Positions 15,185-29,689 of a DNA stretch of 48,685 nucleotides are shown in pieces. The notes below the pieces were generated by a model. It saw only the letters and a program-made list of their open reading frames with translations. It was not told where the DNA came from and made no database searches. Positions within the stretch are counted from its first letter, which is position 1. Every line of letters starts with the position of its first letter. The position numbers and the translations under genes were made by a program. This DNA is from a virus (lineage: Duplodnaviria > Heunggongvirae > Uroviricota > Caudoviricetes): the IMG/VR virus record IMGVR_UViG_2541047926_000004, positions 1 to 48,685 of that record, one strand, 5' to 3'.

Positions 15185-15321
15185 TGTTTGAGTCTTATAT
15201 GGCAGAACGTCTTCGCCACCGCTGGATGCGCCTGCGCTTATATCGTTTCCCCGGTTCTGTTTTGACCGATTACCGGATACTGAAGAATTACGCCAAAACA
15301 CTGAAAGGAGCTGCCGCATGA
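15181..15321 (+). CDS. ylcG: YlcG-like small protein
   Basis: 46 aa [26 protein letters not shown]... overlapping rusA stop and Q start. Confidence 0.5.
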
Positions 15322-16007
15322 ATACCCAATATTTACAGTATGTCCGCGAGCAACTCATTGTGGCTACTGCTGATTTGAGCGGAGCAACGAAAGGCCAGCT
15401 TGAAGCCTGGCTGGAGCATGCACAATTTGATACTGGTACATATAAACGAAAGAAGCCGCGCATTCTGGATGAGGTAACGGGCAAGATGATTACGCTGGAT
15501 AATCCGCCGATTTCCGGTAAGCAGTCGTACGCAAAAGGTTCATCCATTGCACTGGTCAGCCAGGTTGAGTTCTCAACATCTTCATGGCGCCGCGCGGTTC
15601 TGTCTCTCGAAGAACATCAGAAAGCGTGGTTGCTATGGAACTATAGCGAGAACGTGCGCTGGTGCTATCAGGTGGAAATCACTCAATGGGCGTGGGCAGA
15701 GTTCCGGGAGCAGCTCGGCGCGAAGAAGGTGGCCGGCAAAACGATGGAGCGCCTGAAGAAGCTTGTCTGGCTCGCGGCTCAGGACGTGAAAGCAGAGCTG
15801 GCAGGGCGTGAGACGTATGAATACCAAAAGCTTGCCGCCATGGTCGGAGTGACCCCGAAGAACTGGTCAGAAACGTTTACAGAACGGTGGGAGGAGATGA
15901 AAACCACCTTGCGGCGCCTTGATAGCGATTCTCTTTTGCAGGTAACGCGATCACGTTCACAACAAAAGGCGACAAATTTAGACTCAAGTCTTGCAAAACT
16001 GGATTAA
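15318..16007 (+). CDS. late-gene antiterminator Q
   Basis: 229 aa at the Q position just upstream of the lysis genes; AGGAG RBS. Confidence 0.8.
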   Translation: MNTQYLQYVREQLIVATADLSGATKGQLEAWLEHAQFDTGTYKRKKPRILDEVTGKMITLDNPPISGKQSYAKGSSIALVSQVEFSTSSWRRAVLSLEEHQKAWLLWNYSENVRWCYQVEITQWAWAEFREQLGAKKVAGKTMERLKKLVWLAAQDVKAELAGRETYEYQKLAAMVGVTPKNWSETFTERWEEMKTTLRRLDSDSLLQVTRSRSQQKATNLDSSLAKLD

Positions 16008-17609: not shown

Positions 17610-18153
17610 CGTTATTGCAGCGATACCCGCTGGCGCTATTGCTATCGCTGCGGCGTTGATTACTGGCCCAACGGGTAATGATGGCCTTGAAGGTGTACGC
17701 TATCAGCCTTATCGGGATGTTGTTGGAGTGTGGACTGTATGCTGGGGCCATACTGGTAAAGATATTATCCTCGGCAAGACCTACACCAAAGCAGAGTGCC
17801 AGGCGCTGCTGGATAAAGACCTGAATATTGTCGCCCGACAGATTAACCCATATATCAATGCTCCGATCCCCGAAACGATGAGAGGGGCGCTGTACTCATT
17901 TGCGTATAACGTAGGCGCGGGAAACTTCAAAACCTCCACACTGTTACGAAAAATCAACCAGGGTGATTCGAAAGGCGCATGCGAACAACTGCGGCGCTGG
18001 ATCTATGCTGGTGACAAACAGTGGAAGGGTTTAATCACGAGGCGTGAGATTGAGCGTGAAGTTTGCCTGTGGGCAGAGAAACCTCAGGTTCTGGGGGATG
18101 GACTCGGGCCGCTTAACCCTGGCATTCCGGTATCAGTTCCGGGGGTATTCTGA
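17581..18153 (+). CDS. SAR endolysin (lysozyme)
   Basis: 190 aa; N-terminal signal-anchor-release region ([16 protein letters not shown]) then lysozyme-like domain. Confidence 0.85.
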
Positions 18154-18689
18154 TGAAACCCAGAAAAATTACGATTGTTGCGGTTCTGCTGGTGGCTGTC
18201 GTAATCATTATTGCAGTGCTTAGCGTATTACTGGTTCGTAGCCGCTCAGCTCTTGAAACAGAACAGAGTGAGAATCGGGTATTACGTAATGATAACGCGC
18301 TGCAGGCGACGGTGATAACTACACAGGCTTTCAACTTCAATCGGTTTAACCAGATAGCAGAGAACGCCAACCGCCTTAACTCGCTGATCGATGCCGGTAC
18401 TGAGAAAACTGTCATCGAATACCGGGAGATTCTCCGACGTGAAAAGACCTGTGATCTGCCTGTTCCTGCTGATGTCGCTGGTGGGCTGCTCAAATACGCG
18501 TACCGTTTACGTGCCAGCGCAATGCACCCCGATACCGGGAACACTAACGCAACCGATGATAGTACCGCTGCCGCCAGCTCAATGACGTATTGCCAGGCCG
18601 TCCTCTGGATTGAACCTTTGCTGGCTGTTATTGAGAAGGGCAACAATAACCTGGCGGGTATACGAGAGATTGAGAAGTTACGAAAATGA
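18153..18689 (+). CDS. i-spanin Rz
   Basis: 178 aa; N-terminal TM, coiled-coil body; directly after endolysin. Confidence 0.8.
   Translation: MKPRKITIVAVLLVAVVIIIAVLSVLLVRSRSALETEQSENRVLRNDNALQATVITTQAFNFNRFNQIAENANRLNSLIDAGTEKTVIEYREILRREKTCDLPVPADVAGGLLKYAYRLRASAMHPDTGNTNATDDSTAAASSMTYCQAVLWIEPLLAVIEKGNNNLAGIREIEKLRK
18391..18585 (+). CDS. o-spanin Rz1 (embedded in Rz, +1 frame)
   Basis: Lipobox LVGC after a hydrophobic segment; proline-rich C-terminus; true start may be internal. Confidence 0.5.
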   Translation: MPVLRKLSSNTGRFSDVKRPVICLFLLMSLVGCSNTRTVYVPAQCTPIPGTLTQPMIVPLPPAQ

Positions 18690-23037: not shown

Positions 23038-23249
23038 ATCCAGCAGATATTCAAAACATGATCGACCGCTACGCTGCAGCCGAGCTGTCTGTTCTGGAGG
23101 GGAAATCAATCACTTTCAACGGGCAGCAGATGACGCTCGAAAACCTGTCGGAAATCAGAAAAGGCCGTCAGGAATGGGAGCGACGACTGGCTACGCTCAA
23201 TAACAAACGCCGCGGGCGACCCGGCTACAGGCTGGCGAGGTTTGGATGA
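23034..23249 (+). CDS. W: head-tail joining protein W
   Basis: GTG preceded by AGGAGG; C-terminus RRGRPGYRLA resembles lambda gpW; track ORF starts at 23010. Confidence 0.7.
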   Translation: MNPADIQNMIDRYAAAELSVLEGKSITFNGQQMTLENLSEIRKGRQEWERRLATLNNKRRGRPGYRLARFG

Positions 23250-24745
23250 GTTTTTTAGATGATGCGATAGGCCTGTTTTCACCAGGCTGGAAAGCCTCAC
23301 GCCTGCGTGCCCGCGCAGTTATTAAGGCGTATGAGGCGGTAAAGCAAACGCGTACCCACAAAGCCCAGAAGGAAAATCGTTCAGCCGATCAGCTCAGCCA
23401 GATGGGGGCGGTTTCACTGAGGCAGCAGGCGCGCTGGCTGGACAACAACCACGATCTGGTGATTGGCGTTTTCGACAAGCTGGAAGAAAGGGTGGTGGGT
23501 GCGAAGGGCATCATAGTTGAACCGCATCCGATGCTGACTAACGGGAAGATAGCTAAAAAGCTGGCCACTGATATCCGCAGAAAGTGGGGCGAATGGTCCG
23601 TAAGACCCGATGTTACAACCCAGTTTACCCGCCCCATGCTGGAGCGGCTGATGCTGCGAACGTGGCTCCGGGACGGTGAGGTATTTGCTCAGCTGGTTCG
23701 CGGTACCGGAAATGGCCTTCAGCCGGTTGCTGGCGTGCCGTTCTGGCTGGAAGCGCTGGAGCCGGACTTCGTGCCGATGAACAGCGATGCCGCCACCCAG
23801 CTCAATCAGGGCGTTTTTGTCGATAACTGGGGGCGCCCGAAAAAATATCAGGTCTATAAAAGCCTGCCAGTATCCGGGCGTCAGTTCGATACCAAAGAGA
23901 TAGATGCAGAAAACATGCTTCATCTCAAATTCACACGACGCCTGCACCAGACCCGCGGAACGTCTCTATTGTCAGGTGTTCTGATGCGTCTGAGCGCGCT
24001 GAAAGAGTACGAGGACTCGGAGCTTACCGCTGCCAGAATTGCTGCCGCACTCGGCATGTATATCAAAAAAGGCGACGGACAGAGCTTCGAGTCTGATTCC
24101 AGCAGCGATGACCGCGAGCTGATGATTCAGCCCGGTATGCTCTATGACGAGCTGCAGGCCGGGGAAGAAATCGGGATGATTAAATCCGATCGCCCGAACC
24201 CTAACCTCGAGTCGTTTCGTAACGGACAGCTGCGTGCCGTGTCCGCCGGCAGTCGCCTCAGCTTTTCCAGCACATCCAGAAACTACAACGGAACGTACAG
24301 TGCCCAGCGGCAGGAGCTTGTCGAGTCAACCGACGGATATCTGATTCTTCAGGACTGGTTCATCGGTTCAGTGACCCGGCCCATGTACCGGGCCTGGCTG
24401 AAGATGGCTATTGCTGCCGGAGAAATCAAGCTGCCGAGAGGCATCGATATGGACTCGCTTTATAACGCGGTTTATTCGGGGCCCGTTATGCCGTGGATTG
24501 ATCCCGTTAAAGAAGCGAATGCCTGGAAAACGCAGATCCGCGGCGGTGCTGCTACCGAATCCGACTGGATACGTGCCAGCGGTCGCAACCCGGATGATGT
24601 TAAGTCACGCCGTAAAGCGGAGGTTGACGAGAACCGTGAACAGGGCCTGGTGTTTGACACCGACCCCGCCAATGATAAAGGAGGCACCAGTGCCGAAGCC
24701 AAAGAACCGGGCGCGCCACCGTCCGAAAGCCAGCGCAAAAAGTAA
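23246..24745 (+). CDS. B: portal protein (lambda B family)
   Basis: 499 aa between W and the head protease. Confidence 0.9.
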   Translation: MSFLDDAIGLFSPGWKASRLRARAVIKAYEAVKQTRTHKAQKENRSADQLSQMGAVSLRQQARWLDNNHDLVIGVFDKLEERVVGAKGIIVEPHPMLTNGKIAKKLATDIRRKWGEWSVRPDVTTQFTRPMLERLMLRTWLRDGEVFAQLVRGTGNGLQPVAGVPFWLEALEPDFVPMNSDAATQLNQGVFVDNWGRPKKYQVYKSLPVSGRQFDTKEIDAENMLHLKFTRRLHQTRGTSLLSGVLMRLSALKEYEDSELTAARIAAALGMYIKKGDGQSFESDSSSDDRELMIQPGMLYDELQAGEEIGMIKSDRPNPNLESFRNGQLRAVSAGSRLSFSSTSRNYNGTYSAQRQELVESTDGYLILQDWFIGSVTRPMYRAWLKMAIAAGEIKLPRGIDMDSLYNAVYSGPVMPWIDPVKEANAWKTQIRGGAATESDWIRASGRNPDDVKSRRKAEVDENREQGLVFDTDPANDKGGTSAEAKEPGAPPSESQRKK

Positions 24746-26766: not shown

Positions 26767-27114
26767 ATGGGGCTGAATGGAGAAGTTATGGCTAAGAACT
26801 ATGCGCAGGACGGGAAAACGATCCCGCTGGTAAACAGTGGTGCAACCGATATTCAGAGCGGCGACCCGGTTGTTGTTGGAAAACTTATCGCGGTGGCAAT
26901 TACCGATATCCCGGCTGGCGATACCGGGGACGGTTTTACTGAGGGTGTTTTCCTCTTGCCAAAAGTATCCGCAGATGCGGTTACTGCCGGGGCGCAGGTG
27001 TATCTGAAGGACGGCAAAATCCAGACCGATGGAACGGATGCCGTTGCCGCAGGCATCGCCTGGGAAGATGCACCGGCAAACACCACCGTTGTTGAAGTGA
27101 AGATTAATGTCTAA
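26767..27114 (+). CDS. putative head decoration/cement protein
   Basis: 115 aa directly after the capsid gene; assignment by position and size only. Confidence 0.4.
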   Translation: MGLNGEVMAKNYAQDGKTIPLVNSGATDIQSGDPVVVGKLIAVAITDIPAGDTGDGFTEGVFLLPKVSADAVTAGAQVYLKDGKIQTDGTDAVAAGIAWEDAPANTTVVEVKINV

Positions 27115-27382
27115 TCCCTTTGATCGGATGGCGGCTCGCATGGACGCGGCCACCATAAAAAAGATGGGGAAAACGGCTCTGATTAACGGAATCACATACG
27201 ACGTTATCTCTGCTGAGTTGCTTGAAGAGATGGGGCCGTTATCAGGGAATTTACGGTCTCTGGTGGTATTCAGTGGAGATTATACCCCGCGACGAAACGA
27301 TGAAGTGGTTTGGGAAGGCAAAAACTGGACCGTCACACGTCACGAACTGTTTAACGGGAAACCTCGTATCTTCATTGAGTAG
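27107..27382 (+). CDS. FII-like head-tail joining protein
   Basis: 91 aa; position and loose resemblance to lambda FII. Confidence 0.45.
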   Translation: MSNPFDRMAARMDAATIKKMGKTALINGITYDVISAELLEEMGPLSGNLRSLVVFSGDYTPRRNDEVVWEGKNWTVTRHELFNGKPRIFIE

Positions 27383-27631
27383 GAGGGGCTATGTCGATCA
27401 AAGGCCTCGAGCAGGCTATCGCAAACCTCAACAGCATCAGCAAAACGGCCGTTCCACGTGCCTCTGCCCAGTCGGTTAACCGTATTGCCGGGCAGGCCAT
27501 CAACCGAAGCGTTTCTGTCGTTTCGAAATCGACTCGAGTACCTCGAAAACTGGTTAAGCAACGTGCCCGGTTACGGCGGGCTACCGTCAGTAAACCACGC
27601 GCACTTATTCGGGTGAACCGGGGAAATCTCC

Positions 27632-28970
27632 CATAAGCGCTAACTTAAGGGTTGTGGTATTACGCCTGATATGATTTAACGTGCCGATGAATTACTCTCA
27701 CGATAACTGGTCAGCAATTCTGGCCCATATTGGTAAGCCCGAAGAACTGGATACTTCGGCACGTAATGCCGGGGCTCTAACCCGCCGCCGCGAAATTCGT
27801 GATGCTGCAACTCTGCTACGTCTGGGGCTGGCTTACGGCCCCGGGGGGATGTCATTACGTGAAGTCACTGCATGGGCTCAGCTCCATGACGTTGCAACAT
27901 TATCTGACGTGGCTCTCCTGAAGCGGCTGCGGAATGCCGCCGACTGGTTTGGCATACTTGCCGCACAAACACTTGCTGTACGCGCCGCAGTTACGGGTTG
28001 TACAAGCGGAAAGAGATTGCGTCTTGTCGATGGAACAGCAATCAGTGCGCCCGGGGGCGGCAGCGCTGAATGGCGACTACATATGGGATATGATCCTCAT
28101 ACCTGTCAGTTCACTGATTTTGAGCTAACCGACAGCAGAGACGCTGAACGGCTGGACCGATTTGCGCAAACGGCAGACGAGATACGCATTGCTGACCGGG
28201 GATTCGGTTCGCGTCCCGAATGTATCCGCTCACTTGCTTTTGGAGAAGCTGATTATATCGTCCGGGTTCACTGGCGAGGATTGCGCTGGTTAACTGCAGA
28301 AGGAATGCGCTTTGACATGATGGGTTTTCTGCGCGGGCTGGATTGCGGTAAGAACGGTGAAACCACTGTAATGATAGGCAATTCAGGTAATAAAAAAGCC
28401 GGAGCTCCCTTTCCGGCACGTCTCATTGCCGTATCACTTCCTCCCGAAAAAGCATTAATCAGTAAAACCCGACTGCTCAGCGAGAATCGTCGAAAAGGAC
28501 GAGTAGTTCAGGCGGAAACGCTGGAAGCAGCGGGCCATGTGCTATTGCTAACATCATTACCGGAAGATGAATATTCAGCAGAGCAAGTGGCTGATTGTTA
28601 CCGTCTGCGATGGCAAATTGAACTGGCTTTTAAGCGGCTCAAAAGTTTGCTGCACCTGGATGCTTTGCGTGCAAAGGAACCTGAACTCGCGAAAGCGTGG
28701 ATATTTGCTAATCTACTCGCCGCATTTTTAATTGACGACATAATCCAGCCATCGCTGGATTTCCCCCCCAGAAGTGCCGGATCCGAAAAGAAGAACTAAC
28801 TCGTTGTGGAGAATAACAAAAATGGTCATCTGGAGCTTACAGGTGGCCATTCGTGGGACAGTATCCCTGACAGCCTACAAAACGCAATTGAAGAACGCGA
28901 GGCATCGTCTTAACGAGGCACCGAGGCGTCGCATTCTTCAGATGGTTCAACCCTTAAGTTAGCGCTTATG
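27632..28970 (+). mobile_element. IS186 (IS4 family)
   Basis: 1339 bp; terminal inverted repeats CATAAGCGCTAACTTAAGGGTTG; flanked by 10-bp direct duplication GGAAATCTCC (27622..27631 and 28971..28980). Confidence 0.85.
27681..28799 (+). CDS. IS186 transposase
   Basis: 372 aa matching IS186 transposase as recalled. Confidence 0.9.
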   Translation: MPMNYSHDNWSAILAHIGKPEELDTSARNAGALTRRREIRDAATLLRLGLAYGPGGMSLREVTAWAQLHDVATLSDVALLKRLRNAADWFGILAAQTLAVRAAVTGCTSGKRLRLVDGTAISAPGGGSAEWRLHMGYDPHTCQFTDFELTDSRDAERLDRFAQTADEIRIADRGFGSRPECIRSLAFGEADYIVRVHWRGLRWLTAEGMRFDMMGFLRGLDCGKNGETTVMIGNSGNKKAGAPFPARLIAVSLPPEKALISKTRLLSENRRKGRVVQAETLEAAGHVLLLTSLPEDEYSAEQVADCYRLRWQIELAFKRLKSLLHLDALRAKEPELAKAWIFANLLAAFLIDDIIQPSLDFPPRSAGSEKKN

Positions 28971-29290
28971 GGAAATCTCCCCGCCATAAAACTCGGTCCC
29001 GCCAGTGTTCGTCTGTCCCGCAGGAAACGGGATAAGTCGGGTGCAAACAGTGTGCTCAGAATAGGCCCGTTTCGTTTTCCAGGCGCTTTTATCCAGCAAC
29101 TGGCAAATGGTCGATGGCATGTGCTGCGACGCACCACAAAGAACAGGTATCCCATTGAAGTGGTCAGCATTCCCCTGGCTGTTCCCCTTACAGAGGCCTT
29201 CCGTGCTGAGCTACCACGGCTTATGGACGAAAACATGCCAGCAGTTATGCGCCAGAACCTGCAAAACCAACTGAGGTTGATACTCAAACG

Positions 29291-29689
29291 ATGAAACACC
29301 CGCAGATACGCGCCGCCGTTCTGACGGCCCTGAAACGCAGTATTACAGAGCAAATAACCTGGTTCGACGGCAGTCCGGGATTTCTGGAAGAAGAAGATCT
29401 GCCTGCTGTAGCCGTCTATCTGACAGACGCGAGAGCTTCAGAAGATAGCGTGGATGAAGATATGTGGACCGCACTGCTGCATATCGAGGTCTTTTTGAAG
29501 GCAAAAGAGACCGATTCCGCTCTGGATGCCTGGATGGAAGAAAAAGTGTACCCCGCTCTGGCTGATATCCCAGAATTGCTGCCCCTAATCGAACTGATGA
29601 ATGCAAATGGCTATGACTATCAGCGAGATGAGGAAGTGATGATGTGGGGATCAGCCGATCTCAGTTATTCAATCAGCTATGTAATGTGA
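29291..29689 (+). CDS. U: tail terminator protein U
   Basis: 132 aa resembling lambda U (MKH..RAAVL..., C-terminal GYDYQRD). Confidence 0.75.

Follow-up and report, generated by a model that had tools for sequence, protein, structure and literature searches.

IS186 interrupts the tail completion gene Z of a lambdoid Escherichia coli prophage at a canonical target motif that is also occupied in related prophages

The DNA analysed here, the 48,685 nucleotides of IMG/VR virus record IMGVR_UViG_2541047926_000004 (hereafter the window), comprises a complete lambdoid prophage, about 45.6 kb long and integrated in the tRNA-Thr gene thrW next to proA of Escherichia coli, in which a copy of the insertion sequence (IS) IS186, included in this length, splits the tail gene Z. 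The N-terminal fragment of Z (27391-27636, + strand) encodes 81 amino acids (aa) and matches PF06763 (Minor_tail_Z) over profile positions 1-79 of 190 with an E-value of 7.5e-27; its codons are native up to 27631, and its TAA stop (27634-27636) is supplied by the IS186 end. The C-terminal fragment (28968-29294, + strand; 108 aa) matches positions 76-190 of the 190-position profile (E-value 2.1e-39) and consists of a methionine followed by native residues 78-184, the ATG being the last three bases of IS186. Its open reading frame (ORF) is in frame with GNLPAIK, and no Shine-Dalgarno sequence was visible ahead of the ATG at 28968 when the upstream sequence was read.

Deletion of 1349 bp by script, i.e. 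of IS186 and one copy of the flanking repeat, yielded a single Z ORF of 184 aa. The rejoined protein gives one continuous Minor_tail_Z match (residues 3-184 against profile 1-190, E-value 2e-70), scoring 236.9 bits at a curated cut-off of 23.9, and aligns to lambda gpZ with 56% identity (residues 1-184 to 1-192, E-value 3e-66). The exact 184-aa sequence was found intact on 471 public contigs, including that of Enterobacter cloacae ATCC 13047 ('Gp11'), with zero amino-acid changes between rejoined Z and this intact allele; exact excision of IS186 would restore the wild-type Z allele. Upstream of Z lies a gene of the Gifsy-2 family (27107-27382, + strand; PF13856, E-value 7.6e-20), for which we infer, from position alone, an FII-like role in head-tail joining. 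The tail terminator gene U (29291-29689, + strand; PF06141, E-value 5.4e-50) starts within the stop of Z in a 4-bp ATGA overlap, as in lambda (Z 7977-8555, U start 8552), and is followed by the tube gene V (PF16461), the order FII-position gene, Z, U, V being that of lambda. Because of the Pfam match, the identity to gpZ and the lambda-like neighbours, the interrupted gene is a lambda-Z-type tail completion gene.

IS186 (IS4 family; IS421 in PGAP naming) occupies 27632-28970 in + orientation. Its 1339 bp agree with the length of about 1.34 kb expected of IS186/IS421, and it is bounded by perfect 23-bp terminal inverted repeats, the left (IRL; 27632-27654) reading CATAAGCGCTAACTTAAGGGTTG and the right (IRR; 28948-28970) being its exact reverse complement, as established by reading and by script. 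When the near-palindromic target duplication is counted in, the inverted arms reach 36 nt at 94% complementarity. In a set of 5426 complete E. coli genomes, annotated IS186B/IS421 elements are 100% identical to the copy in the window over 1339 bp; a near-full-length copy (at least 80% covered) is present in 2147 of the 5426, the median number of matching places per genome with any match is three, and the element was retrieved in 2725 records at 99% identity or more. Chance resemblance to IS186 is excluded by the full identity to these copies and by the share of genomes carrying one. The InsL-type DDE transposase (27681-28799, + strand; PF01609 DDE_Tnp_1, E-value 1.6e-26) is an uninterrupted ORF of 372 aa from GTG 27681 or 370 aa from ATG 27687, the latter being the call in the public assemblies L007 and L008 (L-numbers denote loci recovered from draft and metagenome collections). 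Judged by its sequence, this IS186 copy is intact in its transposase ORF and at both ends. A 14-nt inverted repeat (27679-27692 and 27751-27764, 86% complementary) spans the two transposase start codons and could mask the transposase start in transcripts reading in from the phage late operon.

The target-site duplication GGAAATCTCC lies at 27622-27631 (left copy) and 28971-28980 (right copy). A repeat search returned a maximal direct repeat of 12 nt, GGGAAATCTCCC, at 27621-27632 and 28970-28981, the two additional positions arising because the first base of IS186 is C and its last is G; the size of the duplication is 10 bp by the convention of 23-bp inverted repeats and 10-12 bp in general, in agreement with the '+12 bp' given for lon::IS186 (PMC3861542). 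An earlier note, made from the letters of the window, had named an IS186 of 1339 bp with 23-bp inverted repeats and an intact 10-bp duplication, splitting a Z frame that runs to 27631 and resumes in frame on exact excision. Reading, script and genome comparison bore out the element to the base, both copies of the duplication stand as described, and the Minor_tail_Z matches of the two fragments and of the rejoined protein, together with the script deletion, confirm the gene, its native frame and its rejoining. The view that the insertion is fairly recent is consistent with the intact duplication, with the identity of the IS to other copies and with a rejoined Z unchanged from the intact allele.

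Removal of IS186 and one repeat copy rebuilds the empty site GGGGAAATCTCCCC, i.e. GGGG(AAATCT)CCCC, a sequence found unaltered in L005, L020 and eight IMG/VR contigs. IS186 inserts nearly exclusively at 5'-GGGG(N6/N7)CCCC-3' (Lee et al. 2016, PMC5009759), of which the K-12 genome has just 19 N6 and 35 N7 sites (PMC5009759), and the insertion site in Z is a canonical target of the form GGGG(N6)CCCC, the duplication consisting of the core and its G/C flanks. In mutation-accumulation lines, single sites were struck many times (fimA 16, menC 11), and both orientations of the element occur because the target flanks are palindromic (PMC5009759). Another IS186 hot spot, attributed to SaiSree et al. 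(2001), is the promoter of lon in E. coli B. Four more canonical motifs in the window (30440, 16331, 31549 and 45177; one N6, three N7) are all unoccupied, the IS-free window thus holding five motifs where about 1.4 are expected from base composition. In several uninterrupted relatives (L001-L004 and L019, aligned to window positions 27619-27634) GGGGAAATCTCCCC is replaced by GGGGGAATCTCCCC, a variant that retains the canonical N6 form; GGGGAAATTTACCG, the sequence at this site in E. coli MS 115-1 (L006), is not a canonical motif.

The 5426 RefSeq complete E. coli genomes contained neither an occupied nor an empty junction and nothing closely related to the flanks or to the module of head genes and Z, with full-length flank matches reaching at most 73% identity; as these genomes lack the locus, the comparison was drawn from drafts and metagenomes. 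A pattern scan of species-representative genomes for the site gave 0 matches, and the phage collection gave only partial matches at the DNA level, e.g. to the cement genes of mEp043 and mEp213. The tail genes of E. coli MS 115-1 are 83-93% identical to those of the window. In the Enterobacter cloacae complex, by contrast, Z with exactly this intact sequence is widespread, and the distribution of these sequences suggests that the late module is recent or rare in E. coli. The exact 81-aa N-terminal fragment was found on 48 contigs, including those of E. coli UMEA 3240-1 (EQY69284.1) and an NCTC strain (UGCF01000003; STI29430.1), and in more E. coli drafts the contigs end exactly at RG, RGN or RGNL, or begin at LPAIK. 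L007 (a 3.58-Mb scaffold) and L008 (a 4.86-Mb contig) are 100% identical to the window across 6 kb.

Junction and duplication are identical in every occupied locus recovered, and orientation varies. IS186 stands in + orientation in the window, L007, L008, L011, L012, L013, L015 and L023, in - orientation in L009 (a 4.8-Mb contig with both flanks), L010 and L016, and probably in - orientation in L014. The 2.6-kb left flank of the occupied loci falls into four haplotypes, 32 to 146 substitutions apart, of which B and C each hold both orientations; an empty haplotype (L001/L003) is intermediate in distance among them. Relatives with tail modules of 95-98% identity have an uninterrupted Z, their alignments to the window stopping at 27632 and restarting at 28970. 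In pattern scans independent of occupancy, 3 of the 13 copies of this site were occupied. L001, a metagenome relative, contains two ClpP-capsid fusion genes (638 and 551 aa) at 4016-9316, and between them lie a reverse-strand gene and a DUF1441 gene, the latter of the family in which the small terminase was expected, an arrangement pointing to prophages in tandem or mosaic form on this contig.

For the phage, the expected phenotype is that of lambda lacking Z. Lambda Z-minus lysates contain particles of normal morphology that are mostly non-infectious, a defect ascribed to a misplaced DNA end at the head-tail interface (PMC11099176; PMC11784142; PMC11661146); their infectivity is about 1/500 of normal (PMC11661146; PMC11099176). 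The gpZ protein was detected in virions by mass spectrometry and not located in the structure (PMC10721106; PMC12617516). By analogy, the prophage should retain host lysis and particle release with an infectivity that is strongly lowered but above zero, and the loss is probably quantitative rather than absolute. Revertants by IS186 excision are plausible, since precise excision has been observed for IS186 at lon, where the insertion is unstable (PMC3861542). That the prophage is probably defective for infectious particles, as the earlier note put it, is a reasonable inference from lambda genetics, but 'poorly infectious and possibly revertible' is a more apt wording than 'defective'. The lost translational coupling may also lower U. 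Q-modified polymerase, from what is known of lambda, should read through IS186. As IS186 is oriented in the window, the late transcript meets no convincing terminator; in the opposite orientation it would run into a good terminator-like hairpin (28417-28398).

On the present sequences, the simplest and likely reading is that IS186 inserted independently several times at a single hot spot, because a canonical motif coincides with the same junction in at least four flank haplotypes, in both orientations, and the site is empty in other relatives; part of the diversity could have arisen by inversion in situ or by recombination between prophages. The earlier note missed the target motif and the presence of this junction in many public assemblies, by which the event is recurrent rather than singular. 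A single old insertion, passed on vertically or by homologous recombination between prophages and inverted in place across the 23-bp repeats, would need no hot spot and would explain why junction and duplication are exactly alike in all occupied alleles; the mixed orientations of haplotypes B and C, at just 1-2 substitutions, are what in-place inversion would yield, and the inverted arms do stretch to 36 nt. A 23-bp repeat is, however, close to the minimum for efficient RecA processing, and recombination across it is expected to be far rarer. Such a history is also at odds with occupied haplotypes up to 124-146 substitutions apart in 2.6 kb with the empty L001/L003 between them, with a rejoined Z that shows no decay, and with documented repeat insertion at single GGGG(N6)CCCC sites in either orientation, 16 of 68 detected IS186 insertions having hit one site (PMC5009759), and we regard it as unlikely. 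Selection might instead have kept the insertion, if loss of Z domesticates the prophage and limits its super-infection spread while the host retains cargo such as the anti-phage defence gene PD-T4-3: the occupied allele is common, as judged from the 48 contigs, the further drafts broken at the junction and the 3 of 13 unbiased samples, and the cargo of the prophage is intact. Against this, a Z knockout leaves induction and lysis running, so that it offers the host cell no evident protection; the target-motif preference by itself predicts repeated insertion, no excess of inactivating events was found away from the motif, and the four empty canonical motifs of the window are in line with the reported site-to-site variation, which leaves selection an improbable cause.

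It is decidedly improbable, too, that the motif GGGG(AAATCT)CCCC in Z serves as a recurrent, reversible IS186 switch of infectivity in E. coli populations, by which lysogens would toggle between the release of infectious and of largely non-infectious particles and the occupied state would be selected for keeping the defence cargo and limiting spread. That the phage might be fully infectious after all, with Z fragments 1-81 and Met+78-184 both produced and reassembling, could be argued from the fact that both are complete ORFs, overlapping by GNLP, and that the IS186 end supplies an in-frame ATG whichever its orientation. Nevertheless, the break falls within the beta core of the predicted single-domain model, ATG 28968 lacks a Shine-Dalgarno sequence, and 1.3 kb of the late operon separates the fragment ORFs, which precludes their translation as one chain; we hold reassembly to be very improbable. 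IS copies are a classic source of misjoins, and many draft contigs stop at this junction, but placement of IS186 by an assembly artefact has a negligible likelihood and was rejected, since the independent megabase-contig assemblies L007 and L008 span both junctions with the duplication and match the window without a difference over 6 kb.

Recurrent insertion at a hot spot has close parallels in laboratory E. coli. At the lon promoter, fimA and menC, the same element used a GGGG(N6/N7)CCCC target with a 10-12 bp duplication, and there as here one site is struck repeatedly in either orientation; precise excision is on record for IS186. Those hot spots are a chromosomal promoter and chromosomal genes in laboratory lines, whereas the present one is in a prophage structural gene in natural isolates and metagenomes, and no paper was found on IS186 together with a prophage and a minor tail protein, nor on this site. 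Lambda Z amber mutants concern the homologous gene (56% identity, PF06763) in the same synteny and with the same ATGA overlap of Z and U, and their complete virions of low infectivity would be the phenotype to expect here; the lesion in lambda is a nonsense codon, whereas the IS insertion is revertible by excision and may have a polar effect besides. The head genes differ as well, lambda having the C/Nu3/D/E set and the window a module of the ClpP-capsid-fusion type. Among cultured phages, the nearest Z proteins are those of N15 (gene product 'gp11'), HK225 and mEp237, with 81-81.5% aa identity over the full length. Z is uninterrupted in these phages, and the early region of the window is of the lambda type (int/bet/exo/cI/O/P/Q) at thrW. 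Cryptic K-12 prophages and the IS629-hit prophages of O157 are cases in which a resident IS disables a single morphogenetic gene of an otherwise complete prophage; compared with IS-interrupted lambdoid prophages of K-12 and O157, the lesion described here stands alone, at a hot spot specified by sequence, and is apparently reversible.

The remainder of the prophage is bounded by a 47-bp exact repeat, with attL at 1399-1445 over the 3' part of thrW (1369-1444) and attR at 47020-47066. Full-length family matches identify as intact the integrase, Bet/Exo, Kil, CI-type repressor, CII, O, P and NinB genes of the early region, Q (15318-16007), the holin and endolysin genes, the head genes for the small and large terminase, portal (23246-24745), ClpP-capsid fusion and cement protein, and, among the tail genes, U, V, the invertible tail-fibre cassette and its Pin-like invertase. 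RusA, on the basis of the ORF list only, and a NinG-like gene are likewise intact, and Rz/Rz1 were assigned to ORFs 18153-18689 and 18391-18585 by position and size. For G, T, H, M, L, K, I and J, the ORF sizes agree with those called in the relatives L001 and L007. Additional lesions near Q (14.4-16 kb) and in the portal gene were considered and ruled out, Q, RusA, the NinG-like gene and the portal gene all being intact. No second lesion was seen in the morphogenetic genes, of which the small ones were not all checked, and apart from Z the prophage is probably complete and inducible.

In the invertible fibre cassette (41110-44128), the + strand bears a fibre gene plus a Tfa gene, and the - strand encodes an alternative fibre C-terminus together with a second Tfa; the Pin-like serine invertase lies at 43538-44128. 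The cassette is followed by the PD-T4-3 gene (44189-45013, - strand; PADLOC E-value 2.7e-140, full length; Pfam GIY-YIG LEM-3-like) and, next to this, a gene for an AraC-family regulator (45778-46530, + strand). PD-T4-3 is intact accessory cargo inside the prophage, shortly before attR, and its full-length match is an example supporting the statement of the earlier note that the accessory genes are intact. Just beyond attR, an IetA-type AAA ATPase gene (47530-48396, + strand; PADLOC E-value 9e-70) matches its profile over 2-283 of 374 positions only and, at the end of the window, lies directly against an IS1 (48407-48673, - strand), by which this defence gene may have been cut short. In the slot of lambda rexAB, flanked by kil and the recombination genes and, at the other end, by the CI repressor gene, lies a pair of genes on the - strand (6993-7874 and 7861-8625), one with a weak match to HipA-like kinases (Pfam 4.7e-7; PADLOC PDC-M66A 1.9e-6) and the other without a family match; related prophages carry different early-region cargo in this part, including Ser/Thr kinase, SIR2 and DUF6414 proteins.

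In mechanistic terms, the disruption of Z is an ordinary IS knockout and involves no new mechanism; the modest addition is a natural hot spot within a prophage gene. Annotation should treat the two ORFs and the IS186 between them as a single, interrupted tail completion gene of a prophage that is otherwise complete, which helps in interpreting both the calling of prophages as 'defective' and the breaking of contigs in draft genomes. More broadly, the locus is a natural case in which the strict target preference of IS186 yields, time and again, one and the same knockout in a mobile element: a prophage that brings into E. coli an allele widespread among Enterobacter meets the resident IS186, which disables it at a predictable base.
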